From Acidimicrobiia bacterium (GTDB lineage: Bacteria > Actinomycetota > Acidimicrobiia > Spongiisociales > JAENVV01): a stretch of 64,000 nucleotides of DNA. The notes under the pieces were generated by a model. The model searched no databases. It saw only the letters and a program-made list of their open reading frames with translations, and was not told the origin of the DNA. The position numbers were made by a program, and so were the translations under genes. Below, piece by piece: positions 1,233 to 55,675 of the stretch. Each line of letters starts with the position of its first letter. Positions within the stretch are counted from its first letter, which is position 1. The stretch is taken from positions 10,520-74,519 of the forward strand of contig JBFHAT010000005.1 in assembly GCA_041586155.1 (NCBI GenBank). The letters run 5' to 3'.

Positions 1233-2387
1233 ATGCGCGTCCTCCATGTGATCGACGGGTTGGGGGGATCCGGCGGCGCCGAGAACCGCATGTGCGAAGA
1301 GGTCCTCGAGCTCGCCGGCCAGACCGACCCGCCCCAGCAGATGGTCGTTCGACTGTACGAGCGCGACTTTCTACAGCCTCGCTTGGAGGAGGCCGGTGTT
1401 GCCGTCGTGGCGCTCGGGCTGGCCGGAGCGCGAGGAGCTCGCAACTGGCCCCTGGCGGCGTGGCGTCTCGTGCAGATCACTCGGAGGTTTCGCCCAGACG
1501 TGATCCATACGTCACTGTTCTCTGCGAACCTGGCCGGCCAGCTGGCCGGGATCGCCACCCGCACTCCCGTCGTGTCGACGATGACCCTGACCGGCGACAT
1601 GCGCCTGCACCGGATGCTGCAACCGGGGGCGGCGTCATGGCGAGCAGGTCTGCTTCGCTGGATCGCCGCCCGAGTGGCCAAGATGGCTCCCGTCGAATAC
1701 CGGGCCATCACCCACGACGTCAAGGACACGTCGTGCGTGGCGATGCCGTTCCCGCCGGACCGAGTGTTCGTCATCCCTCGAGGTCTCGCTCCTACGAGGG
1801 GAACGGCCCCGAGCGATCGGTCTCGCTTCGGTCTACCCGATGGCGTACCCCTGTTCGTCAACGTCGGGCGGCTCACCAAGCAGAAAGGACAGACGCTGCT
1901 CATCGAGGCATTCAGCCGGATCAGACAGGACATCCCCGATGCGATCTTGGCCATTGCCGGTGAGCGGAGCGACGCCACTCACGACGTCGAACGAGCAGTG
2001 ACGTCACATCAGTTGAACGGCGCCGTCCACCTCCTCGGGTTCCGGTCCGACCTCGACCAGCTGCTGGCATCAGCCGACATCTTCTTGTTCAGCTCTCTGG
2101 CTGAAGGTCTCGGCACGGCCGTCCTCGAAGCGGTCGTCGCCGGCCTACCCGTCGTCACCTTCGACATCCCGCCGGTGACCGAGGTGGTGGACGGTGCGCC
2201 TGGTGTGACCATCGTGCCGATGGAAGACGCCGCTGCGCTGGCTGCCGCCGCAGTGAACGCCTGGCGCACGCTGCAGGCCGGAGAGCGAACCGGCGATGGT
2301 CGAGCGTGGGTCTACGACCGCTACGAGCTCGGAGTCGTCGGGTCCCGGCTCAGACGGGAGCTGGAGCGGGTTGCCGGCTCAGCCTGA
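1233..2387 (+). CDS. Glycosyltransferase family 4 (group 1)
   Basis: MRVLHVIDGLGGSGGAE N-terminus. C-terminal GT4 signature EGLGTAVLEAVVAGLPVV. 384 aa. Confidence 0.8.
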   Translation: MRVLHVIDGLGGSGGAENRMCEEVLELAGQTDPPQQMVVRLYERDFLQPRLEEAGVAVVALGLAGARGARNWPLAAWRLVQITRRFRPDVIHTSLFSANLAGQLAGIATRTPVVSTMTLTGDMRLHRMLQPGAASWRAGLLRWIAARVAKMAPVEYRAITHDVKDTSCVAMPFPPDRVFVIPRGLAPTRGTAPSDRSRFGLPDGVPLFVNVGRLTKQKGQTLLIEAFSRIRQDIPDAILAIAGERSDATHDVERAVTSHQLNGAVHLLGFRSDLDQLLASADIFLFSSLAEGLGTAVLEAVVAGLPVVTFDIPPVTEVVDGAPGVTIVPMEDAAALAAAAVNAWRTLQAGERTGDGRAWVYDRYELGVVGSRLRRELERVAGSA

Positions 2388-3272
2388 CCCGAGCTCGAAC
2401 GACGCCGTCATCCATTCCCAGATCAAGTCTCCAAGCGCTTCCTGGGTCGGTAGCGCCGCCCGGCCGTGGACTTTGCCGTCGAGGACCTCGATCTGCATCG
2501 CTGGACCGGCTCGCTCGACCAGGGCTTCCAAGCGGCCGGGCAACGCCGCCTGGAAATCCTCCCATCCGTCCTCGGTACCGAACACGAACAAGACCGGGAC
2601 GCCTCGCTCGATCACTCCCGTCAACGCATCCAAGAACGGACGACTCACCCAGGGCGGCGTGCCGTCGCCGGGCCGGATTCGAGCCAATGCCGCCCTGGCT
2701 TTCGTTCGCGCCAATATCCGAGCGGCCCCTGCGATGCGCGCCAGCTGCTTGGGTTTCAGGAGCATCGTCGGCTCGAGCGCTCCCACTCCCCGGCTCATGA
2801 ACTCCAGTGTGGATCCCTCCGCCAGCCTGGTGGCGGTACCCTCGCCGCGATCGAAGTCGCGCACCAGAGGGGCGATCAGCACCAGGCCGGCCAGATCTTC
2901 GATGCGGTCCGCCGCCGCCAGCGCGTTCCTGGCGCCGAAACACTGACCGATGAGCACGTGTCGGCTCACACCCCGGCTTCGTAGCGAATCGACGGCCCCC
3001 ACGACGTCAGCGGCGAAATAACGGTTCGATCCCATCTCCCCGATCAAGCCTGTGCTGTCCCCGGCTCCGTGATAGTCGAATCGCAAGGTGCGGACTCCGA
3101 CGGAGGCAAGGCGGGTTTCCAGCGGGGTCCACAGCGGGCTGCGGGTCACGGCCGCCGTGTAACCCCCGCCGCGCAAGACCGTGACTCCAAGTGAACCGGG
3201 TTGGTCGGGCTCGGTGCAAGTTCCAAAAAGCGTCTCACCGGCGGCTTCGAAGAAGAGCGGATGAGTTGTCAT
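2379..3272 (-). CDS. Alpha/beta-fold hydrolase, second of an adjacent pair (resembles the exosortase-system-associated hydrolase 1/2 families)
   Basis: Start taken at MTTHPLFFEAAGETLFG, an internal Met of ORF 2379..3431, which gives a 4-bp ATGA overlap with the upstream gene. Sequence has the a/b hydrolase pattern (HG..GDS.G). Confidence 0.6.
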   Translation of the reverse strand: MTTHPLFFEAAGETLFGTCTEPDQPGSLGVTVLRGGGYTAAVTRSPLWTPLETRLASVGVRTLRFDYHGAGDSTGLIGEMGSNRYFAADVVGAVDSLRSRGVSRHVLIGQCFGARNALAAADRIEDLAGLVLIAPLVRDFDRGEGTATRLAEGSTLEFMSRGVGALEPTMLLKPKQLARIAGAARILARTKARAALARIRPGDGTPPWVSRPFLDALTGVIERGVPVLFVFGTEDGWEDFQAALPGRLEALVERAGPAMQIEVLDGKVHGRAALPTQEALGDLIWEWMTASFELGSG

Positions 3273-4147
3273 CGATCCGCCCCCAGGTTCTCCACCCAGG
3301 CAACCGTCTGGTCGATGAGCAGCCTGGTCAGCATCTTGTTCTCTTCTGTCTCGAACCGGTCGGCTTCGAACCACCACGCTTCCTCGTGACCCGTGGAGGA
3401 CGCCGTGACCTCGACACCTGCATCCTGCCACCCAGCCGCGACAAGGGCCAGATCCTCGGCCAGCTCGGAACGGCGCGACACCTGCAGCACGAGCGCTGCC
3501 TCGGAGGCGGCTTCGCTGATCAGTCGGGGAACGTCGATCGGCGCGACCGACCGATGGAGGTCACGCTCGATGAGGTAGTCGAGAACGACCAGACTGCCTT
3601 CGTTCTCGAGCATCGTGACGAGATCGGATCCCGAATGGCGCTTGTCTGCGCCGGAGGTCAGCTCCTGGACCTGCCGCACCCTGATGATGTCGGCCAGATA
3701 TCCCGCCGGATCGATGACCGGATCCCAGAGCACGAGCGGTGCCCCACCGCGCCGGACGGCTGCCCGGGCTGCCACGATGCCACCCCACCGCACCCCCATC
3801 AGGATCATGCGATCAGGACGACAACGCTCGGCGAGGGCACCGGCGGCAGCGTCGGCGTCGTCGGTCATGGACGCAACGGTCATCCCGCCGGGCACGTCGT
3901 CACTCAGACCCGTATTGCGGTATTGGAATCGCTGCACGGCCGCTCCGGCTGCGGCCAGCGCACGCGCCAAGAGCACTTCACGCCGATAGTTCTTGAAGTA
4001 CTCGGCGTAGATCGGGCTGCAGATCACCACTCCCGTCCCACTGGGCTGATCGGGCAGATACCGATGCCCGAAGAGCCCCGGACCAACTAGATCAGCTTCT
4101 TCGAGGAATCCCTCCGCCTGGCGAACAGCTCCCGCTCCAGGGCTCAT
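3269..4147 (-). CDS. Alpha/beta-fold hydrolase, first of the adjacent pair
   Basis: 292 aa with VVICSPIYAEY...GLSDD motifs of the a/b hydrolase fold. Overlaps both neighbours by 4 bp, so it reads as part of an operon. Confidence 0.6.
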   Translation of the reverse strand: MSPGAGAVRQAEGFLEEADLVGPGLFGHRYLPDQPSGTGVVICSPIYAEYFKNYRREVLLARALAAAGAAVQRFQYRNTGLSDDVPGGMTVASMTDDADAAAGALAERCRPDRMILMGVRWGGIVAARAAVRRGGAPLVLWDPVIDPAGYLADIIRVRQVQELTSGADKRHSGSDLVTMLENEGSLVVLDYLIERDLHRSVAPIDVPRLISEAASEAALVLQVSRRSELAEDLALVAAGWQDAGVEVTASSTGHEEAWWFEADRFETEENKMLTRLLIDQTVAWVENLGADR

Positions 4148-5256
4148 CCGGCCCCCTCGCCCGCCGGCGCAGCTTCACTCGCGTCGACGCCTCGCCCGCT
4201 TCCCTGTCCGGCCCGTCGGCTGCTGGCTTCTTCGCGCATCGCCAGCAACCGACCGCTGGGACCGACTGGTCGGAGCAGTGCGAAATCGACGGCATCGGTC
4301 GCACCGAGGGCGTACTTGTGGGGCTCGGACCCTCTGAGCAGATCCAGGCTGGACAACCCTTCGCTTCGCGCCCAGTCGAGGGCAGTCACGGTGAGGGCGA
4401 TACCGATGCCGTATCGGGCAAATTCGGGATTCCATCCTGTTTTGTAGCTGGCGAACGTTGTGCGGTGCCTGAACCCGAGGAGACCGGCGATCGCTTCGCC
4501 GTCCTTCTCCATCAGCAACAGCCACGGCCCGTCAGGTCCAGTCGCTCGCCGGGCGACGTCCGACAGGAAACGCAGGCGAAGCTCGTCGAACAGCCCGCCA
4601 CCTCGACCATCCCAGCGGCTGGCGTGCAGCTCTTGAAGCGAGCTGAGCCCGTCGGCGACCGCCGGGCCTGGCGAGACCCATCGTGGCTTCACGCCGAGCC
4701 CTTCGAGCTGTCGAGCTCGGCGTCTCACGTTCTCCCGCATCTTCTTCGACCAACGACCCTCGATGTCGTCGCTCAGCTGGAACGCCGGGCACCGAATCCG
4801 GTCCACCACGGTAGCTCCGGCGATCCGCAGCAATGCCGGTTCGTGCTGCTCGGCCACCGACTCGAACAGCAGCGTGCGGCCGGACCCCGTCTCGATGGCC
4901 GCTGCCACCAGCGCATGCTCGACGTCGCCGCCTGTCTCGCAAATGGGTCCGAGATGGTCGCCCGCCCCCGCGCCGGACCCGGCGAGACCCAAATAGCGAA
5001 GTGGCACGGGAACTCGCCTGTGGACTCGGCGTTGCAGCTCGGACAGCGCCAGCAGGCCAAGGAGAGTCCCATCATCGTCGCGAGCGGTGAGCACAGTCAG
5101 GGCTGCGTTGGGCTCGAGCACCTCATGCCAGGAGCGAATCCAGCTCGCCGTTTGGAAGAAGTTCGACACCCCGGCTCGGGCGAACAGACGATCCCATTCA
5201 CCCTCCAACTCGTCGAGCGCTTCATCGCCCGGAACGGCGGACACCTGAACAGTCAT
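4144..5256 (-). CDS. FemAB/CelD-like GNAT-fold acyltransferase (BioF2-like acetyltransferase domain)
   Basis: 370 aa. The family is ~350 aa with the WNPEFARYGIGIALTVTALDWARSEG region. It sits directly beside the hydrolase pair, as in PEP-CTERM accessory cassettes. Confidence 0.55.
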   Translation of the reverse strand: MTVQVSAVPGDEALDELEGEWDRLFARAGVSNFFQTASWIRSWHEVLEPNAALTVLTARDDDGTLLGLLALSELQRRVHRRVPVPLRYLGLAGSGAGAGDHLGPICETGGDVEHALVAAAIETGSGRTLLFESVAEQHEPALLRIAGATVVDRIRCPAFQLSDDIEGRWSKKMRENVRRRARQLEGLGVKPRWVSPGPAVADGLSSLQELHASRWDGRGGGLFDELRLRFLSDVARRATGPDGPWLLLMEKDGEAIAGLLGFRHRTTFASYKTGWNPEFARYGIGIALTVTALDWARSEGLSSLDLLRGSEPHKYALGATDAVDFALLRPVGPSGRLLAMREEASSRRAGQGSGRGVDASEAAPAGEGAG

Positions 5257-6377
5257 GGCCGGGCCGATTCCTCGACTTCGTACATCGTCAGCAATTGTCG
5301 GACGATGACGTCGGGCGTGAAGGCTTCGGCTTTACGTCGGCCTTCCGCCCCGCACGACATCCGTAGTTCGGCGCTCTCCGCCAGTTGCTTGATCCGGGCG
5401 GCGGCCAAGCCGGTATCACCGGGCGGAAACAGGAGACCGGCCTGGCCGTCGGTGTCCAGAAGCTGACGGATCGGCTCGAGGTCGGACGCCACGACCGGAA
5501 TCCCGTTGAGCATCGCCTCGGCCGTGATGCGGGAGAACGATTCATCGCGAGATGCCACGAGCACGATGTCGCATTGTTCATAGATGCGACGAACGTCGGA
5601 GTCAGGCCCGCGCATCACGAGGTCGACTCCTTGAATTGCATCCAGCTGCTGCCATACGGGGGTTGCGTAGTCGGAATCGAGCCTTTTCGTGAAGAGGCGC
5701 CACTGCAGATCCAGGCCGCGACAGCCTTCGATGATGTCGGGAAGCAGATCGAAGCCCTTGCGATGACGGCCGGCGCTGAGATACCCGACGACGAGGGGCC
5801 CATCACCGTCACTTCTCTCGGCGACGACATCAGCCGGATCGATCGGGTTAGGGACGATGGTCACCTCGTCCCACGTACACAGGCCATTCTCGACAGCAAC
5901 CGACGCGGCGGTGCGAGACACCGCGGCAAACCGGGGGCGCTGCAGCAACCACCGGAGAATGGGCCCGAGCCTCCGACCCCACGGTGAACCGACCGGGTCG
6001 TGCACCCATACGGTGACCGGCGCACGGGTGACCAATGCTGGGAGCACCGACAGGCTGAGCGCCCGGGTGGCGTTGGCGTGAATCGCATCGATTCTCGTGC
6101 GATGCCGAAGGGACCATCGCGCCAGTCTCAACGCCGCCCATATCCGATGCATTCGGTTGGGAAAGCGCGGCTTCCATGGCAAGTCGATCGTCTCTTCGGC
6201 CAGCCCTCGTTCCCGGACGAGCGCTCCGAATTCACCCTGCATCGGCGCCGCGAGCATCCTCACGACGCGCGGCCCGATCTCCTCGAGCAGCGTCGCCAGA
6301 CTCCGGTTCGAGCCGCCGAGTGGCGCCGGAACCGCGACGAAGAGCACCACCGGCCGTGCCGGCTGGTCGGGACTCAT
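5253..6377 (-). CDS. Glycosyltransferase family 4
   Basis: 374 aa. GT4 C-terminal domain (ESFSRITAEAMLNGIPVVASD). Overlapping start/stop with both neighbours. Confidence 0.75.
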   Translation of the reverse strand: MSPDQPARPVVLFVAVPAPLGGSNRSLATLLEEIGPRVVRMLAAPMQGEFGALVRERGLAEETIDLPWKPRFPNRMHRIWAALRLARWSLRHRTRIDAIHANATRALSLSVLPALVTRAPVTVWVHDPVGSPWGRRLGPILRWLLQRPRFAAVSRTAASVAVENGLCTWDEVTIVPNPIDPADVVAERSDGDGPLVVGYLSAGRHRKGFDLLPDIIEGCRGLDLQWRLFTKRLDSDYATPVWQQLDAIQGVDLVMRGPDSDVRRIYEQCDIVLVASRDESFSRITAEAMLNGIPVVASDLEPIRQLLDTDGQAGLLFPPGDTGLAAARIKQLAESAELRMSCGAEGRRKAEAFTPDVIVRQLLTMYEVEESARP

Positions 6378-7228
6378 GCTCGTCCCCAGAGATCAAAGCC
6401 GGGACCCACCAGCGAGCGCAGGTCTGCGAGGTCATCTGCCAATTGGTCCCAGATCCAGGCCTCGGTCGAAGGATCGATGTCGAGTGTGTCCCGCTCCAGC
6501 GGCCTGCTCAACGCCACCCGAAGACGCTGTTTGGCGAAGCGGGGCATCATGCGGCTCACTGCCGTGCCTCGAGCGGCTCTGCGCACCCGGTTGACGATCC
6601 CTGGTGCCTGGCGCTTGTCGGCGGTGCGGTTGAGTTCGCGCTCCACCGTCGCGATCGGCACGGTCGGATCGACCCCGATGAACGAGAAGATCTCATCGAG
6701 GACGGCTTCGCGCTCGTTGAGGAGCCGGTCCGACGACACCACCATGATCTGATCGCGAGGGAAGTGATCGAGGTAGAGGCGCAACTGGTAGGCGTACCTA
6801 CTGACATCGAGGTAGTCGGGACTCGCCCGCAGCGCCTCGGCGATCGGTCGTTCCTCCCTGCCCCTGTCGACGTAGTGGGCGTATTGGCTGCGGATCCGTG
6901 CCACCGGATCCCGGATGACATACACGAGCTGGATCGCCGGATACTCCTTGGCGATGCGAGCGGGCACGTCGGGAATCTTGGGTGCCTGCGAGTAACTGGT
7001 AGAGGCTTCGCCAATCGCCGTCTCGTCCCCGGCGTCGGCGAACAGCGACAGATACCAGTCGAGCCCCCGCGCCATGTTGACCGAGAAATAATGCGGTTCC
7101 TTGCGCTGGGGCATGAAGACGTCCGGGTGGGACCGCAGATACGCCGAGAGGCTCGTCGTGCCCGATTTGGCGGCACCGATCACCATGAATGTCGGATGTC
7201 TCGTCACGCGTTCACCCCCCTGGACCAT
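6374..7228 (-). CDS. Sulfotransferase (PAPS-dependent family)
   Basis: 5'-PSB-like motif MVIGAAKSGTTSL close to the N-terminus, followed by HPDVFMPQRKEPHYF. 284 aa. The start could instead be the internal Met at MVIGAAK. Confidence 0.75.
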   Translation of the reverse strand: MVQGGERVTRHPTFMVIGAAKSGTTSLSAYLRSHPDVFMPQRKEPHYFSVNMARGLDWYLSLFADAGDETAIGEASTSYSQAPKIPDVPARIAKEYPAIQLVYVIRDPVARIRSQYAHYVDRGREERPIAEALRASPDYLDVSRYAYQLRLYLDHFPRDQIMVVSSDRLLNEREAVLDEIFSFIGVDPTVPIATVERELNRTADKRQAPGIVNRVRRAARGTAVSRMMPRFAKQRLRVALSRPLERDTLDIDPSTEAWIWDQLADDLADLRSLVGPGFDLWGRA

Positions 7229-7254
7229 CGGATGTTAGCCAGGGAGGGTCCCGG

Positions 7255-8253
7255 TCACGAGCGGCCCCGGGCGTGGTGGATCGCCGGGTGGAGCCCACTG
7301 AGGATGATGGCGAGCCGGTCGAGCGATGTCGTCGAGTTCACCCGCAAACGGGAGATGCGGAGCCGCGCCCCCGGCGGCATGGGCTGCAAGTGATGATCGA
7401 ACAGGAAACCGAGGACGTAGCCGAGCTCGTCGAGCACCGACTCGGCCCGGCCGTCCCAGTTGCCGTTGGGATAGGCGAACGCACGCGGGGACCGTCCCAT
7501 CCACGCTGCAAGTTGGCGGTGCGCCGCCTCGATCTCATGCCGGATCTTGTCGGTCGGGCATCGATCGAGACACGGGTGGCTCATCGTGTGGTTCTCGATC
7601 ACCACGCCGCCACGCTCGAGCGCCGCCAGGTCATCGACGCTGAGTTGGGGACTCTGCACGGGTTCGCCGTCGACGGACGCCCGCAGCCATTCGATGGCTT
7701 CCAGCCGCTGGGAATCGGGCACGACTTTGAGCCGCTGGACCAAGGTGCCCGGACCCGGAAGGGGGTCGACGGCCCCGCGAGCCAGCAACGCCTCGACCTC
7801 GACCCACCACAGCGGCCGGCTCGTGCCGATCACCCCGGGAACCACGAAGGCGACGCCGGGTACCCCGCGCGCTTTCATCATCGGCAGGGCGGTGTCTCGC
7901 ACGGAGCGGATGCCATCATCGAACGTGATCAGCAGCGCGTTGGGCGGCAACGAGATTCGGCCGGCGGTGGCATCGATGGCATCTGCCAGTGAAATCGGAT
8001 GGTATGCCGACCGATACAGGTCCAGATGCGCCTCGAACTGGGCGGCGTCGTCGATGCCGTGGTACGCCACCACGGCGAGATCGCGACCGGCTCGCCGGCG
8101 AAAGAATGGCTGCAGGGGCGAACGCCGGAGGGTGGCATCGGCCAGGCGGTTCGGAACGATCAATCTACCTCCCAGCGTGAACCATAACGCGCGCCCCGTG
8201 ACCGGGTCGCTGGTTGAAGCGTGCCGACAATGGAGTAACGTTGCTCCGCACAA
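7255..8253 (-). CDS. Polysaccharide deacetylase (NodB homology domain)
   Basis: ITFDDGIRSV...NHTMSHP motifs. ORF 7255..8385 would overlap the divergent ABC gene, so the start was tentatively moved to the in-frame TTG at 8253. The start is uncertain. Confidence 0.6.
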   Translation of the reverse strand: MCGATLLHCRHASTSDPVTGRALWFTLGGRLIVPNRLADATLRRSPLQPFFRRRAGRDLAVVAYHGIDDAAQFEAHLDLYRSAYHPISLADAIDATAGRISLPPNALLITFDDGIRSVRDTALPMMKARGVPGVAFVVPGVIGTSRPLWWVEVEALLARGAVDPLPGPGTLVQRLKVVPDSQRLEAIEWLRASVDGEPVQSPQLSVDDLAALERGGVVIENHTMSHPCLDRCPTDKIRHEIEAAHRQLAAWMGRSPRAFAYPNGNWDGRAESVLDELGYVLGFLFDHHLQPMPPGARLRISRLRVNSTTSLDRLAIILSGLHPAIHHARGRS

Positions 8254-8275
8254 GACTGTACAAAGGGAGGGATCG

Positions 8276-9340
8276 ATGGCTGCGCGGGGCCGGTCACGTT
8301 GGACGCGGCGCGATGCCGGCGCGTCACCCGAGGACCGTCGGCTTGTGCCCGACGGCGGACCGGTGGTGAGCATCTCCAATGTCACGAAGGTCTACACGCC
8401 GTACCCGCCCTTCATGCGGATCTTGCTGCGGTCGTCGATCAAGTCCAGCATCGTGGCGCTCAACGATGTCTCTGTAGACGTCGAAGCGGGCAGCATCCTC
8501 GCCATCGTCGGACCCAACGGTGCCGGAAAATCGACACTGTTTCGGATATTGACCGGGCTCACCACCCCCACCGAGGGGTCGGCCACCATCTGCGGTTTCG
8601 ATGTGACATCACAGGCGTTCCATGTGCGCAGCCGGGTGGGTTTTGCGCCCGCCGACGAGCGTACGCTGCTGTTGCGCCACACCTGCCGTGAGAACCTGAT
8701 GTTCCACGGCAAGCTGCAGGGAATGGAGCTGCGCGGACTGCTGCGCGAAGTCGACGCGACGCTGGAGCTCGTCGGGCTCGGAAAGGCGAAGAACCGGGCA
8801 GGCATCGCGCTGTCGTCGGGTATGAAGGCCAGGTTGCAGCTCGCCCGAGCCTTGCTCCATCGCCCGGCGGTGCTCATCCTCGACGAGCCGACCGGCGCGA
8901 TCGACCCCCTCGCCGCTTACGAAGTGCTCGAGATCATCAAGCAAGCTGCCCGCGAGCGCAACATCGCCACACTCATCAGCTCCCATCGCCTGGAGGAGAT
9001 CGAAGCGCTCCACGACAACGTCGTGCTCATGGATCAGGGCAAGATCGTGTACAAGGGTGACCTCGACGTCATGCGAGAGACCTGGGACAAGCCGGGATTG
9101 GAGATCGTGTTCGAGGACGCGGCCTCCGCCACCCGGGTCGCCGAGTTGGTGGTGAACATGGGATTGGCGACCATCAGCGAGCACGACGGCGTCGTACTGA
9201 CGCTGTCCTCCGACCTGGGCACCGGAAAGCTGATCCACGCCCTGACCGGCCAGACCGAGCAGATCCGTTCGTTTCGAGAAGTCAAGCTGCCGCTGCGGGA
9301 TCTGCTCGCCAAGATCCTCTTGTCAGGAGATGCGACATGA
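8276..9340 (+). CDS. ABC transporter ATP-binding protein (ABC-2/Wzt-like) with C-terminal extension
   Basis: Walker A GPNGAGKST, signature LSSGMKARLQLA, Walker B ILDEPT. ATG at 8276 is preceded by AAAGGGAGGG. An alternative GTG start is at 8345. The start of ORF 7547..9340 is upstream antisense noise. Confidence 0.8.
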   Translation: MAARGRSRWTRRDAGASPEDRRLVPDGGPVVSISNVTKVYTPYPPFMRILLRSSIKSSIVALNDVSVDVEAGSILAIVGPNGAGKSTLFRILTGLTTPTEGSATICGFDVTSQAFHVRSRVGFAPADERTLLLRHTCRENLMFHGKLQGMELRGLLREVDATLELVGLGKAKNRAGIALSSGMKARLQLARALLHRPAVLILDEPTGAIDPLAAYEVLEIIKQAARERNIATLISSHRLEEIEALHDNVVLMDQGKIVYKGDLDVMRETWDKPGLEIVFEDAASATRVAELVVNMGLATISEHDGVVLTLSSDLGTGKLIHALTGQTEQIRSFREVKLPLRDLLAKILLSGDAT

Positions 9341-10155
9341 ATGGTCATCCCGTCGTGGCCGGCACGCGTCGACTCCGTCAGGTCGGGTCGGCCTTCTTCC
9401 GCCTCGGGCTGCAGCAGACCCTTGCGTACCCGTTGTCATTCGTCCAGAGCCAGCTCAGCTCCATCGTGCCGGCGATCATCTTCTTCTTCGTGGCGAAGCT
9501 GGTCGCCCAGGAGAACTACTACACGTCGGTGATCATCGGACTGGTCGCGGCGGGGGTCCTCGACGCCGGTGTTCGAGGCTTCACGCGGGAGATCGACGTG
9601 GCAATCAACCGAGGGTGGTTGGAGATGTTCCTCGTCGAACCGGTGCGCTGGCGTTTCCTCCCATTTGGGATGGCCCTGTGGCCCATCACCCTCGGCCTGG
9701 CCAGCGTCTCGATGATCGCCCTCACGGCCGCCGCCTTGGGTGCACAGTTCCGGCTCGAGAACCTCCCACTCGCCCTCGTGTTCCTTCTGTTGGCGCTCGC
9801 CGCCGGACTGGTGATCGGAACACTGTCCGCCTCCCTCAAGGTGCTGGCAAAATCCGGCGATCCCGTCCTCTTCGTGTACGGGCTGCTCACCCAGATCTTC
9901 GCCGGCGTGTACTTCGATCTCGACGTGATCCCTGCGCCACTGCGCGTCATCTCGTGGGCGTTGCCCCACACGTACGCCATCGCCGCGCTGCGACGCCTGC
10001 TGCTGCCCGAAGGCAGCCAACTCCCGTCGATCTCGGTGGCGACATCCACCTGGGTACTGGTGGCGTTCTGCGTAGTCGGATATCCGGTGGCACTGTGGGT
10101 CTACGGACGGGCACTGGAATACGGCCGCCGTCTGGGGGTGCTCAGTGGCTATTGA
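9337..10155 (+). CDS. ABC-2 type transporter permease (Wzm-like)
   Basis: 272 aa with six predicted TM segments. ATGA overlap with the ATPase gene. Confidence 0.75.
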   Translation: MNGHPVVAGTRRLRQVGSAFFRLGLQQTLAYPLSFVQSQLSSIVPAIIFFFVAKLVAQENYYTSVIIGLVAAGVLDAGVRGFTREIDVAINRGWLEMFLVEPVRWRFLPFGMALWPITLGLASVSMIALTAAALGAQFRLENLPLALVFLLLALAAGLVIGTLSASLKVLAKSGDPVLFVYGLLTQIFAGVYFDLDVIPAPLRVISWALPHTYAIAALRRLLLPEGSQLPSISVATSTWVLVAFCVVGYPVALWVYGRALEYGRRLGVLSGY

Positions 10156-11131
10156 ACCCGGAGAACCCCAGCCGGTGTTTCCGATATTCACGGGCGCCGG
10201 TCGTTCGGGCACCACCTTGTATCGCTCGATCTTCGACTCGCACCCTGACCTCTTCGTCGCACACGAAGCGCATTTTCTCGGTCCCATGGCGGCACGGGCC
10301 GGGCGATACGAGATGAACGGAGCATTCGACCGACAGCGCTTCGTCGACGACCTCTACGACGACCACAAATTCGTGGTGCTGGGCGTCGACCGCCGAGAGG
10401 TGGCCGAAGCCTTCGACGTCGCCGGTCCTGCCGACTTCGCGACCGCCGCCCGGACGGTGTTCGGCGTGCTGGCGCAGCGGGCGGGCAAGCCGAGATATGG
10501 CGACAAATCTCCCAACTATGCGAGCCGCATCACCGAGATCGCGTCCGTCCTGCCCGAGACGAAGTTCGTTCACATCGTGCGGGACGGCCGCAACGTCGCC
10601 CTTTCGCTGCTCGACCGGGGGATCGGACCTGGCACCCTCATCGACGCCGCGAGCCATTGGTCTTCCGTGGTTCGCAAGGTCGGCAATGCGAGCCGTGAGC
10701 TGGGGCCGGACCGGATCCTCCAATCGAGGTACGAGGATCTCATCGCCGAGCCAGAGTCGGAGGTGAGAAGGATCTGCGACTTCTTGCATCTGCCGTTCGA
10801 TCCCCGCATGCTGGCGTATCGGGAGCGAGTGGACGAGATCCTCGAACCGCTGAAAGCGGTCGAATGGGACTGGGCGCATGAGAACCTCTCCGCTCCACTC
10901 GATCCGACGTTACGTGACTGGCGATCGACGATGGAATCGGACGACGTGGCGGCGTTCGAATCGGTTGCGGCCGAGGAGCTGGAGCGCCACGGGTACACCA
11001 TCGCTTCGGATCCGGCAGACCGGCCGGCTGTGCGAGCCGCTGCCAAGGGTCGATGGCTCGGTAAGCGGGTGGCCTTCCGGATACGGCAACCACTCCGGAA
11101 ACGACGCCACCGCCGCCGTCTCGAGCCGTGA
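10145..11131 (+). CDS. Sulfotransferase
   Basis: IFTGAGRSGTTLYRSIFDSHPDLFVAHE 5'-PSB motif. GTG start overlaps the permease stop. Confidence 0.75.
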   Translation: MAIEPGEPQPVFPIFTGAGRSGTTLYRSIFDSHPDLFVAHEAHFLGPMAARAGRYEMNGAFDRQRFVDDLYDDHKFVVLGVDRREVAEAFDVAGPADFATAARTVFGVLAQRAGKPRYGDKSPNYASRITEIASVLPETKFVHIVRDGRNVALSLLDRGIGPGTLIDAASHWSSVVRKVGNASRELGPDRILQSRYEDLIAEPESEVRRICDFLHLPFDPRMLAYRERVDEILEPLKAVEWDWAHENLSAPLDPTLRDWRSTMESDDVAAFESVAAEELERHGYTIASDPADRPAVRAAAKGRWLGKRVAFRIRQPLRKRRHRRRLEP

Positions 11132-12033
11132 GCTCTCTGGGTCCTCGGCCCAGCTTCTTCATCGTTGGTGCACCAAAATGCGCCACGACGTCGATGTACG
11201 AGTACCTGCGCGCCCACCCCGATGTCTTCATGCCCGACAGACGGGAGATGAACTACTTCGGCTCTGATCTGCCGCTGCCGAATCGGCTGCCAGATCTCGA
11301 AACCTATCTGTCGTTCTTCACCGAAGCGCAACCCGGCCAGGTCGTAGGGGAAAAGTCCGTGAATTACCTGTTCTCGCGGTCGGCTGCGCACGAGCTCTTG
11401 GAGTTCGATCCCGAGGCGAAAGCGATCATCATGCTGCGCAACCCGGCGGACGTCGTGTTCTCGTTGCACCGCCAGTTCTTGTTCTCGGCCAACGAGGACA
11501 TCATCGACTTGGCCTCGGCCCTCGATGCCGAGGATGAACGCATTCGAGGGCTCCGGATCCCGGCAGGCGCCCACAACCCGGCGATGCTGGCGTACACGAG
11601 AGTTGCCTCGTTTGCGCCGCAGGTGCGGCGGTACCTGGATCAATTCGGTCCGGATCGGATCGCCGTGGTGATCTTCGACGACTTCGCTGCAGACCCCGAG
11701 CGTGAATATCGGTCGGTGCTCCGGTTCATCGGCGTCGATCCCGGATACGAACCTGACTTCGAGGTCCACAATCCGGCCAAGCGGGTACCGAATGTGGCGG
11801 TGCGTAAGTTCATGAAGACCCATCGCGGCCTCAGTGCCGTGATCAACCGCATCGTCCCTGAAGACCTGCTCGACCGTGCCCGTTCGAGTTTGGCCCGACT
11901 CCAACCGCAACCCGAGCGCCAGCTCGATCCGGATCTCCGTCGACGGCTCGTCGAGGTGTTCGACGACGACATCAGCCAGCTCGAAGCGCTGATCGACCGC
12001 GACCTGTCGGGCTGGCGGCTCGTACCGGCTTAG
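11128..12033 (+). CDS. Sulfotransferase
   Basis: FFIVGAPKCATTSMYEYLRAHPDVFMP motif. GTGA overlap with the preceding gene. Confidence 0.75.
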   Translation: MSSLGPRPSFFIVGAPKCATTSMYEYLRAHPDVFMPDRREMNYFGSDLPLPNRLPDLETYLSFFTEAQPGQVVGEKSVNYLFSRSAAHELLEFDPEAKAIIMLRNPADVVFSLHRQFLFSANEDIIDLASALDAEDERIRGLRIPAGAHNPAMLAYTRVASFAPQVRRYLDQFGPDRIAVVIFDDFAADPEREYRSVLRFIGVDPGYEPDFEVHNPAKRVPNVAVRKFMKTHRGLSAVINRIVPEDLLDRARSSLARLQPQPERQLDPDLRRRLVEVFDDDISQLEALIDRDLSGWRLVPA

Positions 12034-13046
12034 ACGACCTCGAGCTCGCGCAGGATCCGAAACACCTCCGCGCCGATCGGAGCGGTGCGAGAGATCGGGA
12101 TGTGGGCGAAGTCGACCTGTGCCTGCACGCCTTCGAGCTTCAACAGACGATCGATGTCGACCACATGGAAATCGAGCCGAGCGGAGAGTTCGCTGAGCGC
12201 CAGATTGAACTCGCGCCGGCGCAGCGGATGGGCCGACCCCAGCAGCTGGTAGTTGTGATGCTGACTGCCCGGATCGACCACCAGGCTGTTGTAGATGATG
12301 ACGTGTGCGCCGACTTTCTCACGAATCAGCCTGATCACCTCTTCCAGATTCTTCTGAAAGTCGGCGACATCGATCCGGCCGATGCTCTCGAAGTTCTTCT
12401 TGAACCAGCGGGCGACCTCCGGGTCAGGTAGCACCTTGTCCGTCAGGTTGTTGAGCCAGAAGCCGCCCGGATCGATCAGGTATCCCTCGCTTCGGTGGCG
12501 GTAGACGACGCGCACGAGATCCGAGCCGATGGAGAGGATGACGACCGTCTTGGGAAACCGGCCAAAGCGGGGATGGTCATCGATGACGAAGTCTTTCTCG
12601 GTGAACAGGCGAGGTCCGAAATAGTGCTCTTCGAGCCGGAGCCGGCGCCTCACCTCCGCGGTGTCGGCGGTGGCTGCGTCGCCGAGCGTCTGGAGCATCT
12701 GATCGGTCCGGTGCGCCCCCAACTCGCCACCTGTGCCTTGTTTGAAGATGCCGACCGTGCCCTCGAGTCCGGGACCGATCAGCGGCGCCGCAGTGAATGT
12801 GGACGGCAAGTCGCAGCCGCCACGCAGCAGCACCCCCACCCGCCGCGCATCGGGATCGTTCTTGGAGCGGATCACGGCGAAATTGGGACCGGTGTACTGC
12901 ACGAAGTCGGGGCCGGTCTTCTTCCGGACGCGATCGACCACCGCCTTGCGGTACGTGGCCTTGAAACGCCGCTCGAATGCCGTGTCGGTACCGGCGAGCT
13001 TGCGCCAACCTTTGACGCCTTTACGTAGCAGCTTCTGCATCGTCAC
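12030..13046 (-). CDS. Hypothetical protein, possible SGNH/GDSL-like hydrolase
   Basis: VVILSIGSDLVRV is block-I-like and DFAHIPISR is DxxH block-V-like. Assignment is tentative. Confidence 0.35.
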   Translation of the reverse strand: MTMQKLLRKGVKGWRKLAGTDTAFERRFKATYRKAVVDRVRKKTGPDFVQYTGPNFAVIRSKNDPDARRVGVLLRGGCDLPSTFTAAPLIGPGLEGTVGIFKQGTGGELGAHRTDQMLQTLGDAATADTAEVRRRLRLEEHYFGPRLFTEKDFVIDDHPRFGRFPKTVVILSIGSDLVRVVYRHRSEGYLIDPGGFWLNNLTDKVLPDPEVARWFKKNFESIGRIDVADFQKNLEEVIRLIREKVGAHVIIYNSLVVDPGSQHHNYQLLGSAHPLRRREFNLALSELSARLDFHVVDIDRLLKLEGVQAQVDFAHIPISRTAPIGAEVFRILRELEVV

Positions 13047-13456
13047 AGCTCCTCGGCGGTACGGTCCATCACCTCGGCCACGACCCTCATCTTCGAGGTG
13101 GAGTCAGGACTCCCGCCGTTGTCGCCGAACTCGGGCGCGACGTGAGCCAGCACGTCTCCAACCCGGAACGGGCTGCCCTCACCCAGCTCGATCGAGCGCA
13201 TCGTGCCTGGTTCTGACGCAATGATACGGAACCGCAGCCGCAGCTTGACGGTCCGCGTTTGTTCCGACTTCGCGCGACGCCGCCTGAGCAGACGGGAGGC
13301 GTCTTTGGTTCGATCTACGGCCTCCGATTCGCGCGCCTCGATCTCGCAAAGAACGTCACCGAAGGCGATCGCGCCGCCCTCGGCGACGTGCCATTTCGTG
13401 ACCGAGCCGCCGATCACGCCCATGCCGAGCTCGGGTACTTCGACCGACAGGATCAC
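13043..13456 (-). CDS. Small lipoyl/biotinyl-attachment-like domain protein lacking the modifiable lysine
   Basis: VPELGMGVIGGSVTKWHVAEGGAIAFGDVLCEIEARESEAV resembles the E2 lipoyl domain, but the position of the lipoyl-Lys is Arg. 137 aa. Confidence 0.4.
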   Translation of the reverse strand: MILSVEVPELGMGVIGGSVTKWHVAEGGAIAFGDVLCEIEARESEAVDRTKDASRLLRRRRAKSEQTRTVKLRLRFRIIASEPGTMRSIELGEGSPFRVGDVLAHVAPEFGDNGGSPDSTSKMRVVAEVMDRTAEEL

Positions 13457-14130
13457 TCGGCGCCGTCCCGACTGCCCGACTGGACGAGCAAAGGTCGGCG
13501 TTCGAAGAATCCGTAGTCCTCGAGAATGCGCAGTGCCTCTGCGGCGAGTGCCGCGTTGGCAGCTGCGGAGTACTCGAGAGGACCCGCGACATGGTCGGCG
13601 GCCCCCATTTCCGCCAGGATCCGATCCGCATCGATGATCGAGACGCCCTCTCTGATCGACAGTTGGAGCAACGCCAGGTCGACCTGCTGTGCTCGCCGGG
13701 TGAAGGGGTCGGGCTGGTCGTGGTAGTTCGAGATCGTCACGGTGGGGTCGATAGTCGAAGCATTCAGGAAGACGACGTAGATCTCGTCATCCTTGAACCT
13801 CTTCACGACTCTCTCCATCGCCCCCAGGAAACCGTCGGGATGAGATGCACCGACCAGCACGTCGGGATGCGGGCCTAGGAACACGAGATCGGGCCGGTCG
13901 GCGATGGCGCGACTCCGACCGGACTCCAGCTCAGACAACAGGTCGGGATAGCCGCCCCGCGCCTCGATCGTGAGGTCGACCTGCACGCCGTGCTTGCGCC
14001 GGACGAGGTCGGCGAGCCCTTCTTGGAGGACGCTTCCTCCATCGGCTCGCGACACCAGCGCGTCGACGAGTTCCTTGTTCCCCTTGACGACGACCGACAG
14101 GCGGTCCTGGCCGCCGAGACGAGGTGACAT
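13453..14130 (-). CDS. Hypothetical protein
   Basis: 225-aa ORF in an operon-like overlapping arrangement between the ACP and the lipoyl-like gene. No confident family assignment. Confidence 0.4.
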   Translation of the reverse strand: MSPRLGGQDRLSVVVKGNKELVDALVSRADGGSVLQEGLADLVRRKHGVQVDLTIEARGGYPDLLSELESGRSRAIADRPDLVFLGPHPDVLVGASHPDGFLGAMERVVKRFKDDEIYVVFLNASTIDPTVTISNYHDQPDPFTRRAQQVDLALLQLSIREGVSIIDADRILAEMGAADHVAGPLEYSAAANAALAAEALRILEDYGFFERRPLLVQSGSRDGAE

Positions 14131-14135
14131 CGATC

Positions 14136-14395
14136 CTACGCCGCCGGCGAGCGCCTGCTCTCGATCAGCGTCGTGATCGCAGAGATGTCCTTGAAGTTGT
14201 CGAGCGTGACGTCTTCAGGCTCGATCTCGATGCCGAATTCCTCCTTGATGTGCCCGAGGAGGAGGAAGATGCCAAGCGAGTCGATGATCTCACGTTCGAG
14301 GAGGTCGGTGTCGTCTTCCAGGGCCTGATCAGGCCGGCCTTCCATGAATTCTTGGCGGATGAACGCTTTGACCGCTGCAGCAGTGTTCTCCACGA
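14136..14395 (-). CDS. Acyl carrier protein (phosphopantetheine-binding)
   Basis: LLEREIIDSLGIFLLLGHIKEEFGIEIEPEDV contains the DSL phosphopantetheine attachment motif. Start taken at GTG 14395, ~86 aa. The upstream part of ORF 14136..14621 is probably not translated. Confidence 0.6.
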
Positions 14396-14738: not shown

Positions 14739-15944
14739 ATGAAACACACCATCCTCATCTCGATCACGGCTGCGGTGACCGCCGCCACTCTCTTCGTCGC
14801 GGCGCCGTCGCCGGCAGTTGCATCGAGCAGCCTCAGCCCGATCGGCGTGGTCGGTTGCTCGAACACCCGGAACGCAGTCACCGGATACCACGATGTGTCG
14901 TCGGCCAATGCCTTCTGGAGCGCCGCGTCCATCGCCAGCTACGGCGGCGGCTCCGTCGTGCAATGGGAGAAGGCCAGCGACCCACGCTGGGCGACATTCG
15001 ACGAACAGCTGGCCGCCCGCGGGGCAGCAGCCGTGTGGCTGCAGCTGTGCGTCGCCGACAGCTTCAACGGACCCCTCACCGTCGCAGACAACATCGTCGC
15101 TCTGATCCGCCAGCGCACCAATGTTCCCATCTATGCGTCGGCCATCGACGACACGCCATCGTGCAACCGGTCGAATCCGGCTCTGTCCCAGGACATGGTG
15201 GACCACCTCGTCGCCAACGGATCGGCGGAGCGTGGCCCGGTCATGCAGCCCCTCACGGCCAGCCAAACACTCGACGGTTGTCACGCCAACGACGTGGGCG
15301 ACGATGTGTGGGGTGAGACGTTGGCTCTGTTCTTCACCGGGATCGGCGAGGGGGACGATCCGTCGCCGACCCCCAACCCCAGCCCCAACCCCAGCAGTGG
15401 ATCCGGCCTGTTCATCGACGACGACAACAGCCCCCACGAGACAAACATCGAGTGGATCGCCAAGGCCGGGATCACGCTGGGCTGCAATCCTCCCGCCAAC
15501 GATCGCTACTGCCCCGACGACTCCATCACCCGAGGGCAGATGGCGACGTTCCTCGTGCGCGCCCTCGACCTTCCCCCGGCTCGAGGAGCGGTCGGGTTCA
15601 AAGACGACGACGGCATCCATGAAGGCAACATCGAAGCTGTCGCGGCGGCAGGTATCGCATTCGGATGCAACCCCCCGAGCAACGACCGGTTCTGCCCATA
15701 CGACCCGGTCACCCGGGCGCAGATGGCCTCGTTCCTCGCACGAGCGTTCGATCTCCCTCACGTCTCCAACGGCCCGACCTTCATCGATGACGATGGGTCC
15801 GTGCACGAGGCCAACATCGAAGCGATCGCGGCTGCCGGCATCACGGTGGGATGCAACCCGCCCAAAGGCGACAGGTTCTGCCCTGACGATCCGGTGACCC
15901 GCGCCCAGATGGCCACCTTCCTCGTACGGGCGCTCACTCAATGA
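14739..15944 (+). CDS. Secreted protein: SGNH-like N-terminal domain plus three Cys-containing SLH-like repeats
   Basis: Signal peptide MKHTILISITAAVTAATLFVAAPSPAVA. GCSNTR and DGCHAN motifs. Three ~55-aa repeats of the form FIDDDxxxHExNIExIAxAGIxxGCNPPxxDRxCPxDxxTRxQMAxFLxRA. RBS CCAGGAG. Confidence 0.6.
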   Translation: MKHTILISITAAVTAATLFVAAPSPAVASSSLSPIGVVGCSNTRNAVTGYHDVSSANAFWSAASIASYGGGSVVQWEKASDPRWATFDEQLAARGAAAVWLQLCVADSFNGPLTVADNIVALIRQRTNVPIYASAIDDTPSCNRSNPALSQDMVDHLVANGSAERGPVMQPLTASQTLDGCHANDVGDDVWGETLALFFTGIGEGDDPSPTPNPSPNPSSGSGLFIDDDNSPHETNIEWIAKAGITLGCNPPANDRYCPDDSITRGQMATFLVRALDLPPARGAVGFKDDDGIHEGNIEAVAAAGIAFGCNPPSNDRFCPYDPVTRAQMASFLARAFDLPHVSNGPTFIDDDGSVHEANIEAIAAAGITVGCNPPKGDRFCPDDPVTRAQMATFLVRALTQ

Positions 15945-31978: not shown

Positions 31979-32017
31979 TTCAGTTCTTCCTCCTGGTTCT
32001 GATTCGTCGAAGGCCAC

Positions 32018-33256: not shown

Positions 33257-33284
33257 TGGTGCATCTCCCGGGGGTGGACTCTTC

Positions 33285-54657: not shown

Positions 54658-54659
54658 GG

Positions 54660-55601: not shown

Positions 55602-55611
55602 TGGGCACCTC

Positions 55612-55632
55612 TTATACTCGTAATGAGTATAA
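55612..55632. promoter_or_regulatory. 21-bp palindrome TTATACTC-gtaat-GAGTATAA; candidate NrtR operator controlling nadA-nadB-nadC
   Basis: Perfect 8-bp arms read from the sequence, located between the nrtR stop and nadA, ~10 bp upstream of the GTG start. Confidence 0.5.
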
Positions 55633-55675
55633 CTCATCGTGAGAGGAGGTCAATTCCCGCCTTTCACCATGGCCA

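Follow-up and report, generated by a model that had tools for sequence, protein, structure and literature searches.

Sulfated polysaccharides of bacteria have been firmly documented mainly in cyanobacteria (PMC8205485), and in an actinomycete they have only been predicted (PMC13390465). The closest described systems are synechan (xss) of Synechocystis PCC 6803 and wps-1 of Actinoplanes missouriensis, polysaccharide clusters in which two sulfotransferases of distinct subfamilies are encoded together with glycosyltransferases and a polysaccharide co-polymerase (PCP) (PMC8205485, PMC13390465). The sulfated product was shown for synechan (PMC8205485) and predicted for wps-1 (PMC13390465), and the authors of the synechan study reported that sulfotransferase genes were also found in ABC-type cyanobacterial clusters (PMC8205485). 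In Pontiella, clusters bearing sulfotransferases were predicted, and sulfated extracellular polymeric substances (EPS) were measured in cultured strains (PMC7356697). Sulfated, partly N-sulfated polymers resembling glycosaminoglycans (GAGs) were measured in the EPS of granular sludge, where the producers were unidentified (PMC10483923), and the bacterial pathways for such GAG-like polymers were described as not well known (PMC10483923, PMC7356697). In the literature, no paper linking sulfotransferases with Acidimicrobiia was found, only incidental co-mentions. Here, a stretch of 64,000 nucleotides from an uncultured, soil-type Acidimicrobiia bacterium (assembly GCA_041586155.1, contig JBFHAT010000005.1, positions 10,520 to 74,519; hereafter the window) was analysed, in which three sulfotransferase genes (ST1, ST2, and ST3) lie beside the genes of an ABC-2 exporter. 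The G+C content of the window was 63-68%. On its sequence, the region is best read as a locus for glycoconjugate biosynthesis that extends over at least 27 kb, with the sulfotransferase and exporter genes at its core. Its product is probably an exported, multiply sulfated glycoconjugate, which would be sulfated in the cytoplasm by four sulfotransferases and exported by the ABC-2 pump with a PCP-like partner.

The sulfotransferases and the exporter operon

A search with hidden Markov models built from the sulfotransferase families revealed exactly three sulfotransferase open reading frames (ORFs) in the 64 kb, all inside 5.7 kb. With no others present, the clustering is not a matter of chance. 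ST1 (6374-7228, minus strand, 284 aa) is a 3-OST/NDST-like enzyme that scored 51.3 bits against Sulfotransfer_3 and 49.3 bits against Sulfotransfer_1. ST2 (10145 or 10175 to 11131, plus strand, 328 or 318 aa) is TPST/CurM-ST-like and scored 114.8 bits against Sulfotransfer_3, and the 3-OST-like ST3 (11128-12033, plus strand, 301 aa) scored 61.7 and 48.4 bits against Sulfotransfer_3 and Sulfotransfer_1, respectively. All of these domain scores exceeded the Pfam gathering cut-offs (27 and 22), and together with the fold matches in the PDB they confirmed the three ORFs named in the original prediction, which had been made from the letters of the window. In the PDB sequence searches, ST3 matched entry 3rnl over its full length (2.8e-47), and ST1 matched the same entry (5.9e-24). 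For ST1, the match to 3-OST-3 (1.5e-18) was stronger than that to the sulfotransferase domain of NDST (5.7e-10). The PDB relatives of ST2 were the polyketide sulfotransferases CurM/OLS and TPST (~1e-13), and weak matches to NoeE were obtained for ST2 (2.4e-05) and ST3 (0.007). Bacterial carbohydrate sulfotransferases had been called uncommon, which is correct among characterised enzymes but not in the Acidimicrobiia lineage: the ST2 family had more than 2000 homologs at E <=1e-5, those with a named source being labelled Acidimicrobiia/Actinomycetota, and some related loci contained three to five sulfotransferases within 20 kb.

The residues expected to bind the donor 3'-phosphoadenosine-5'-phosphosulfate (PAPS) were inspected in two alignments, A2 (ST1, ST3, and ten homologs from related loci) and A3 (33 sequences of the ST2 family). 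The 5'-phosphosulfate-binding (5'-PSB) loops were GAAKSGTTS in ST1, GAGRSGTTL in ST2, and GAPKCATTS in ST3. The basic residue of the loop was Lys in ST1 (K20) and ST3 (K17), whereas in ST2 it was an invariant Arg (GRSGTT), as in TPST and CurM-ST. A missing Lys, which had been proposed as a ground for rejecting the original prediction, was therefore the wrong measure for the ST2 family. Residues G18, E44, R106, and S114 of ST1 were invariant in A2, and K17, E40, R104, and S112 of ST3 fell in invariant columns of A2; residues R20, S21, T24, E41 (the base), and R146, the last from the 3'-phosphate-binding (3'-PB) segment, were invariant in A3 for ST2. The catalytic Glu was E44 in ST1 (EPHYF, aligned to EPHFF of 3-OST-3), E40 in ST3 (EMNYF), and E41 in ST2 (HEAHF, aligned to PELHL of 4gox, an entry annotated as “Polyketide synthase”). 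The 3'-PB segments were IRDPVARIRS, VRDGRNVALS, and LRNPADVVFS in ST1, ST2, and ST3, respectively. ST3 showed mild deviations, with Ala at a near-invariant Gly (PKCATT) and loss of the second Arg of RDPxxRxxS. On the whole, the conservation check that had been suggested for these enzymes came out in their favor, with the PSB loop, the Arg and Ser of the 3'-PB, and the catalytic Glu all kept in the family alignments. No hydrophobic or membrane segment was found in ST1, ST2, or ST3, which places all three in the cytoplasm, as the use of PAPS requires. Judged by these motifs, ST1-ST3 look functional and PAPS-type.

ST1 and ST3 shared 27% identity. The genes of a fourth sulfotransferase, ST4 (305 aa, 3-OST-like), and, directly after it, of a 266-aa CE4 deacetylase together occupied a segment ~1.1-2.9 kb upstream of the window (L032:4207-5938), where overlapping contigs reach ~7 kb beyond its edge. 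The presence of ST4 and a second deacetylase implies that the cluster runs past the window edge. ST1, ST3, and ST4 were mutually 27-31% identical, and the match of ST2 to the other sulfotransferases (E ~1e-4) was confined to the surroundings of the PSB loop. By sequence, the sulfotransferases are old, diverged copies from two families rather than recent paralogs. The earlier description of three paralogs that carry a PSB motif was thus right about the loop, which all three possess, and wrong about their closeness. Because two families are represented, with at most 31% identity inside a family, the enzymes probably act at different positions. Farther upstream of ST4 on the same contig were genes for a 460-aa protein without family, a Trp-halogenase-like FAD enzyme, and an acyl-CoA dehydrogenase.

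The gene map was drawn from codon-position GC and compared with the public calls for metagenomic contigs of identical sequence. Two divergent predicted operons, one with the deacetylase and ST1 on the minus strand and one with the ABC genes, ST2, and ST3 on the plus strand, were separated by 112 bp of intergenic DNA (8164-8275). The gene junctions on the plus strand gave the order ATPase-permease-ST2-ST3, and a putative ribosome-binding site, AGGGAGGG, was placed 5 nt before the ATPase ATG (8276). The ATPase and permease genes shared an ATGA overlap. The permease and ST2 genes overlap by 11 nt if ST2 begins at GTG 10145 and are 19 nt apart if it begins at GTG 10175, with no GTGA in either case, while the ST2/ST3 junction was a genuine GTGA overlap. 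The proposal that two sulfotransferases are coupled to the exporter by GTGA overlaps was upheld insofar as ST2 and ST3 share the exporter operon, but the GTGA was confined to the ST2/ST3 junction. The minus-strand operon contained four ATGA overlaps and had the order Deac-ST1-GT4b-AcT6-Hyd4b-Hyd4a, in which ST1 was flanked by the CE4 deacetylase gene upstream and the GT4b glycosyltransferase gene downstream. The public (Prodigal-type) call for ST3 started at ATG 11194 and gave a protein of 279 aa with the 5'-PSB loop cut off. The start was placed instead at GTG 11128, because the next in-frame start (11194) would remove the loop; the GTG start gave the full-length alignment of ST3 to 3rnl. No exact match to this longer ST3 was found by look-up because the public call begins at ATG 11194. 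A 597-aa ORF (7547-9340, plus strand) was rejected as a high-GC artefact, since its 5' 730 nt are the antisense strand of the deacetylase gene and the ATPase in fact starts at 8276.

The transporter and the C-terminal domain of its ATPase

The transporter is composed of an ABC ATPase of the DrrA/NodI/ABCA type (8276-9340, plus strand; ABC_tran, 111.6 bits) and an ABC-2 permease (9337-10155, plus strand; PF01061 ABC2_membrane, 32.9 bits with a cut-off of 26.9). The permease contained about six hydrophobic segments and had no PDB sequence match. The ATPase had been predicted to be Wzt-like, with a C-terminal extension of ~90 aa that might recognise the modified end of the exported chain. The best NCBIfam matches of the ATPase were DrrA (TIGR01188, 191 bits, 2.8e-56), GldA, RbbA, and NodI (134 bits), all of them under the equivalog cut-offs and hence indicating class-level membership only. 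Its best PDB sequence matches were ABCA3 (6e-58), the nucleotide-binding domains (NBDs) of ABCA4/1/7, and Thermotoga TM_1403 (4yer). Wzt was absent from the 60 best PDB sequence matches and the 50 best Foldseek matches of the ATPase. The label Wzt-like was accordingly dropped, as the best matches were to DrrA, GldA, NodI, and the ABCA NBDs.

An extension does follow the NBD (residues ~30-270); it spans ~85 aa (residues ~270-354) and includes a folded domain at residues 274-349 (nt ~9095-9322). No Pfam match to Wzt_C was found in the ATPase, and the 86-aa tail alone gave no PDB sequence match. An AlphaFold2 model of the ATPase was built from an alignment of 51 sequences whose homologs were 48-59% identical over the full length, the C-terminal tail included. 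The mean predicted local distance difference test (pLDDT) score was 90 for the whole model and ~90 in residues 274-349, which were modelled as a beta-alpha-beta-beta-alpha-beta(-alpha) fold of the ferredoxin/ACT-like type. Foldseek superposed the model at full length (320-360 columns, tail included) on 4yer (target TM-score, TMt, 0.82) and NosF of NosDFY (TMt 0.81), and further on the ABCA1/3/4/7 NBDs with their R-domains and on MetN with its C2 domain. For 4yer, NosF, and the ABCA proteins, 320-346 columns were aligned. The C-terminal module of Wzt is an all-beta-sandwich carbohydrate-binding domain (PDB 2R5O). Set against this sandwich, the mixed alpha/beta tail leaves the idea of a chain-terminus reader without support. 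The comparison of the predicted structure with the Wzt domain, which the original prediction had recommended, thus returned a different fold, with no Wzt resemblance among the Foldseek top 50, and a Wzt carbohydrate-binding domain as the ATPase tail was rejected on the modelled fold and the Foldseek matches. Of the predicted extension, its existence stood and its function did not, the fold being that of an R/C2-type regulatory domain. From the fold shown in the model, we infer that the tail would be the regulatory or dimerisation domain usual in the DrrA/ABCA class, not a reader of glycan ends. A conserved insert specific to this family was also present at ATPase residues ~40-58 (window 8393-8450), between the first two strands of the NBD. 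It had the consensus YxPSPxWMRxLLRSSI and was modelled as partly helical, and we know of no such insert in other ABC ATPases.

Conserved neighbourhood and the nature of the product

Related loci were retrieved solely with the ATPase or with a four-sequence permease alignment, the latter run on one genome per species, which gave 21 distinct loci from metagenome-assembled genomes (MAGs). By identical sequences and the names of homologs, the window locus belongs among Acidimicrobiia MAGs, and the link of transporter and sulfotransferase genes recurred in independent genomes. Related or overlapping MAG loci and contigs are labelled L0xx. Permease orthologs with 42-59% identity were found in at least 19 MAG loci, and sulfotransferases were present in the examined flanks of 11 of the 21 distinct loci. 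Among loci with a permease at least 50% identical, seven of eight had a sulfotransferase, and the sole exception was a 3.4-kb contig. Sulfotransferase genes were located directly downstream of the permease, as in the window, in L010, L011, L015, L016, and L023. Glycan genes (GT4, GT2, DegT, CE4, epimerase, Bac_transf, or Wzy) appeared in every informative locus, and distant loci without sulfotransferase were still set amid glycan genes (L012/L020, L024, and L028). From these gene contents, the transporter family looks like a group of glycoconjugate exporters with the nearest branch dedicated to sulfated cargo. The intact, cytoplasmic sulfotransferases, their motifs, the exporter operon, the conserved linkage, and the glycan-building neighbours make an exported, multiply sulfated glycoconjugate the best reading of the locus, in agreement with the product first proposed.

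A 632-aa membrane protein (17425-19323, plus strand; start at M63, set from an identical 632-aa representative) was a recurrent partner in the related loci. It was Wzz/Wzc-like, that is PCP-like, in its topology, with two transmembrane (TM) segments around an external coiled-coil-rich region and a cytoplasmic degenerate P-loop domain. Its match to the Wzc kinase had an E value of 0.048, the Walker A motif was degenerate (VSKT), and no C-terminal Tyr cluster was present. An exhaustive phmmer search gave 194 relatives. A Pfam Wzz match was seen in 7 of 40 scanned relatives and a fused CE4 domain in 1 of 40, and a fused C-terminal 3-OST-like sulfotransferase domain was present in 3 of the 150 best relatives (P0388, P0390, and P0498). 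Through such fusions, the membrane protein is linked with sulfation chemistry, and a polymer is suggested as the product.

The neighbouring genes were largely those expected for the building and modification of glycans. GT4a (1233-2387, plus strand; Glycos_transf_1, 2e-30) and GT4b (5253-6377, minus strand; Glycos_transf_1, 9e-16) are glycosyltransferases; GT4b homologs with 45-60% identity were found in L010, L011, L014, L015, and L016, and a GT4a homolog with 59% identity adjoined the permease in L014. A DegT/DnrJ/EryC1 sugar aminotransferase (19377-20516, plus strand; 1.7e-93) had homologs next to the transporter genes of L015, L012/L020, and L028. Deac1 (7255-8163, minus strand) is a CE4 polysaccharide de-N-acetylase of the PgaB/IcaB-like type (Polysacc_deac_1, 3.2e-21; PDB 4wcj, 2.7e-10) that has kept the motifs of CE4 enzymes for metal binding and catalysis (TFDDG, HTMSH, and RAFAYP); the second deacetylase, upstream of the window, is PgaB/IcaB-like as well. 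Neither a signal peptide nor a TM segment was found in Deac1. Genes for a CE4 enzyme and a 3-OST-like sulfotransferase were adjacent on the same strand (gap of at most 120 nt) four times in three genomes. This adjacency appears as an echo of the logic of NDST, in which de-N-acetylation is followed by sulfation. It would fit a heparan-sulfate-like, partly N-sulfated hexosamine polymer, made by split “NDST” pairs of CE4 and sulfotransferase proteins together with O-sulfotransferases, exported by the ABC-2 pump and the PCP-like protein, and serving as the anionic wall or matrix polymer that holds the SLH proteins, which would place Acidimicrobiia among the producers of the GAG-like EPS of sludge, mats, and soil. 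We regard so specific a product as a long shot. Similarity of Deac1 to the NDST deacetylase was also looked for and was undetectable by sequence, as only bacterial CE4 enzymes matched.

Several further neighbours suggested an acyl decoration. Hyd4a (2379-3272, minus strand; Hydrolase_4, 1e-10) is an alpha/beta-hydrolase with a Cys in its nucleophile elbow (GQCFG), and its hydrolase-like partner Hyd4b (3269-4147, minus strand; Hydrolase_4, 8.5e-06, under the Pfam cut-off) contained neither a GxSxG nor a GxCxG nucleophile motif. The pair recurred by sulfotransferase, acyl carrier protein (ACP), or transporter genes in L007, L009, L010, L011, L017, and L018. A FemAB-like GNAT acyltransferase (AcT6; 4144-5256, minus strand; Acetyltransf_6, PF13480, 1.7e-26) had ATGA overlaps on both sides. 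On the far side of ST3, a minus-strand operon encoded an ACP (14136-14393; PP-binding, 5e-06) with the phosphopantetheine site IDSLG, U225 (13453-14130; Lipase_GDSL_2, 0.02), U137 (13043-13456), and U338 (12030-13046), an order that was kept in L011, L015, and L016. U338 belongs to an SGNH-like family restricted to Acidimicrobiia (228 homologs, with Acidimicrobiia/Actinomycetota as the source wherever one was named); its SGNH fold matches were weak, and its AlphaFold2 model had a pLDDT of 82. Its residues C78 and D79, where block I of SGNH enzymes would sit, and D312 and H315 of a DxxH motif were invariant. U225 is an SGNH-like paralog of U338 (BLASTP, 2e-06), and U137 contains a lipoyl-like domain (Biotin_lipoyl, 7.8e-08 over residues 5-41) in which the modifiable Lys is absent. 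Acyl transfer is one possibility for this operon, and the ACP, Hyd4a/Hyd4b, and U338/U225 together suggest acyl decoration of the product.

Surface proteins were encoded on both sides of the core. The C-terminal part of a CEMIP-type beta-helix protein with three SLH domains (12-1205, plus strand; SLH, 4.8e-45) opens the window; its start is upstream, and the complete gene (747 aa), with the CEMIP_beta-hel domain, is present on the contigs L001 and L032, which overlap the window. Homologs of the CEMIP-type beta-helix were found in L011, L012, L016, and L018. A secreted SLH-domain protein of 401 aa with an N-terminal hydrophobic segment (14739-15944, plus strand; SLH, 3.8e-11) is on the other side. 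Since two SLH-domain proteins flank the core, the product may be cell-wall-associated. U414 (15938-17182, minus strand) is, by its sequence features, secreted and held in the membrane by its C-terminus, and it contains a linker rich in Thr and Pro; it had no family match, and homologs with 42-48% identity were found in L009, L015, L016, and L030. PDB sequence searches with U338 and U414 gave nothing useful. A proposed SGNH-like “GxSNT” domain shared by U414 and the second SLH protein was dropped because BLASTP returned nothing (E 0.6).

These parts can be arranged in a tentative pathway. The two GT4 transferases would build a glycan that contains hexosamine at the cytoplasmic face of the membrane, with the amino sugar supplied by the DegT aminotransferase, and the cytoplasmic CE4 deacetylases would strip some of the N-acetyl groups. 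The soluble cytoplasmic sulfotransferases, three in the window and the fourth upstream, would then add several sulfates from PAPS. Acyl decorations would probably be added by the ACP, the Cys-type hydrolase pair, the FemAB-like acyltransferase, and the SGNH-like proteins. As PAPS is present only in the cytoplasm, the finished anionic product has to be moved across the membrane. Export would be the task of the co-transcribed ABC-2 transporter of the DrrA/ABCA class, with the ferredoxin-like C-terminal domain of the ATPase serving as the NBD-dimer or regulatory domain. Outside the cell, the Wzz/Wzc-like protein and the wall-anchored SLH/beta-helix proteins would handle the product, and their presence speaks for a polymer, be it capsule, EPS, or wall polymer, rather than for a small glycolipid; by this gene content, the glycoconjugate is probably a polymer. 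The gene identities, intact motifs, cytoplasmic location, operon links, conserved gene order, and fold of the ATPase tail are shown by the sequences and the model, whereas the donor and acceptor of sulfate, the sequence of steps, the choice of polymer over oligosaccharide, and the carriage of the sulfated product by the pump are inferred parts of this scheme.

A small sulfated and acylated oligosaccharide or glycolipid, following the logic of Nod factors or mycobacterial sulfoglycolipids, was weighed as another product. It would be made by NodB-type CE4 de-N-acetylation, N- or O-acylation from the ACP, and sulfation, and the short glycan would leave through an ABC-2 pump of the NodIJ/DrrAB type. 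The ATPase families DrrA, GldA, and NodI, rather than Wzt, KpsT, or TagH, agree with this route, as do the CE4 deacetylases without signal peptide, like NodB, the ACP, FemAB-like acyltransferase, and Cys-type hydrolase pair as conserved cluster members, and the weak NoeE matches of ST2 and ST3. It would also account for a cluster with two glycosyltransferases only and without initiating transferase, polymerase, or flippase. However, no NodA or NodC homologs were found in the cluster, and all of the NCBIfam matches were far under the equivalog cut-offs. The conservation of the two-TM Wzz/Wzc-like protein, some homologs of which carry a fused sulfotransferase domain, and the beta-helix/SLH surface proteins, which suggest a wall-associated polymer, also argue against a small product. 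Moreover, the related loci, among them that of the Egibacteraceae (L012, with Wzy_C and Bac_transf), contained Wzy_C, Bac_transf, Wzz, and many glycosyltransferases. A small product therefore appears unlikely.

The exported, sulfated polymer favored here also has points against it. The Pfam scans of the window cluster revealed neither a phosphoglycosyl transferase for initiation nor a polymerase nor a glycosyltransferase that is obviously processive, so that a polymer is no more than probable. No genes for PAPS synthesis (APS kinase, CysDN) were found in Pfam scans of ~49 of the ~59 window genes, the rest being mostly short ORFs. The PCP assignment is weak, the window protein having no Pfam match of its own and a Wzc match at the E value given above. 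Distant relatives of the transporter (permease identity 42-46%) often had no nearby sulfotransferase (L021, L022, and L024-L028), which implies that the transporter family is not restricted to sulfated cargo. In Aeromonas salmonicida, an ORF with a sulfotransferase domain is located next to wzt, and the O-antigen has no sulfate (PMC4483657).

The last two observations bear on whether the pump carries the sulfated product at all. The cargo of the ABC-2 transporter might instead be a lipid-linked precursor without sulfate or some other component of the envelope, or the pump might serve efflux or immunity; the sulfotransferases would then act on a cargo that leaves by another way or on an acceptor that is not a carbohydrate. 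For ST2, candidates for such an acceptor are a surface-protein tyrosine and a hydroxyacyl group carried on an ACP: the acceptors of its closest solved relatives are protein tyrosine (TPST1/2) or ACP-bound beta-hydroxyacyl chains (CurM, OLS), and the cluster has an ACP. About half of the transporter-family loci were without sulfotransferase in the examined flanks, the Egibacteraceae locus with Wzy_C and Bac_transf indicates a Wzy-type route, and the A. salmonicida case is a precedent for a sulfotransferase domain by wzt without a sulfated product (PMC4483657). On the other hand, ST2 and ST3 were translationally linked to the permease in the window, and sulfotransferases directly after the permease recurred in the five loci listed above. 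ST1, ST3, and ST4 resembled carbohydrate sulfotransferases (3-OST, NDST), and a cargo that is sulfated in the cytoplasm has to be exported, for which no other candidate was found in the cluster. We consider a pump unconnected with the sulfated product quite improbable and retain export of the sulfated glycoconjugate by the ABC-2 transporter.

The remaining genes of the window were of other kinds. A TauE/SafE (TSUP) anion permease (20582-21652, plus strand; 5.8e-16), whose membership in the cluster is uncertain, was the sole sulfur-related transporter found in the window, and it had no homolog in the related loci. A spike of AT-skew (0.255, with absolute values of at most 0.10 elsewhere) at 32001-34000 coincided with two minus-strand Liv-type permease genes (32018-34310) and is probably an effect of the codon composition of hydrophobic membrane proteins. 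A Tad/TadE-like pilus-assembly protein was encoded at 45662-47578, with a 600-aa protein without family after it, and a 384-aa protein at 51138-52292 had a borderline eCIS_core match (E 1.8e-4, at the cut-off). An ordinary housekeeping operon for NAD biosynthesis (52274-56566, minus strand) contained nadA, nadB, and nadC, with an NrtR-type regulator adjoining. This operon, together with UPF0182, DivIVA, and Lon-PDZ, was consistent with an actinobacterial chromosome.

Comparison with described systems

If the proposed reading is true, the locus would provide new carbohydrate sulfotransferases for the enzymatic making of sulfated glycans. The window locus and about ten related Acidimicrobiia loci give a concrete conserved gene set, with an ABC-2 pump, 3-OST-like and TPST-like sulfotransferases, CE4 partners, and a PCP-like protein, and on its gene content the locus is a plausible source of sulfated polymers in environmental biofilms. 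For annotation, the idea of a C-terminal reader of the Wzt type is inapplicable here, and the public call for ST3 drops the PAPS loop.

Although synechan and wps-1 resemble the window cluster in their general composition, both export by Wzx/Wzy. The window cluster has a DrrA/ABCA-class ABC-2 pump, and no Pfam families for a Wzx flippase or a Wzy polymerase were detected among its genes. It further differs from the two systems in its four sulfotransferases, CE4-sulfotransferase gene pairs, ACP/SGNH-like operon, and SLH-anchored proteins. The likeness to Wzm/Wzt systems lies in an ABC-2 (PF01061) permease with a separate ATPase in a glycan locus, whose cargo would be finished and modified in the cytoplasm before it is exported; this permease feature is common to the Wzm, DrrB, NodJ, TagG, and KpsM classes. 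The difference lies in the ATPase, whose NBD is not of the Wzt type and whose C-terminal domain of ~80 aa is mixed alpha/beta with no beta-sandwich module. The ABC-2 transporters with an R-domain (DrrAB, NodIJ, ABCA, and NosFY) gave the best sequence and full-length structural matches of the window ATPase. DrrAB, NodIJ, and NosFY belong to the contexts of polyketides, Nod factors, and N2O-reductase maturation, respectively, whereas the context in the window is glycan synthesis.

For the enzymes themselves, the nearest solved relative of ST3 and ST1 was 3rnl, which we take to be from Alicyclobacillus acidocaldarius and whose entry names no function and is silent on the acceptor. In their fold and in the catalytic Glu, PSB, and 3'-PB motifs, ST1, ST3, and ST4 agree with the animal 3-OST enzymes and the sulfotransferase domain of NDST. 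Animal NDST is bifunctional, whereas the de-N-acetylase and sulfotransferase of the window are separate, gene-paired proteins, and the window deacetylase is a PgaB/IcaB-like CE4 enzyme with no detectable sequence similarity to that of NDST. In comparison with these systems, the locus presents no new principle and is a new conserved variant, which is distinguished by a DrrA/ABCA-class exporter, four sulfotransferases of two families, CE4-sulfotransferase pairs, fusions of PCP-like and sulfotransferase domains, and lineage-specific ACP/SGNH-like genes.

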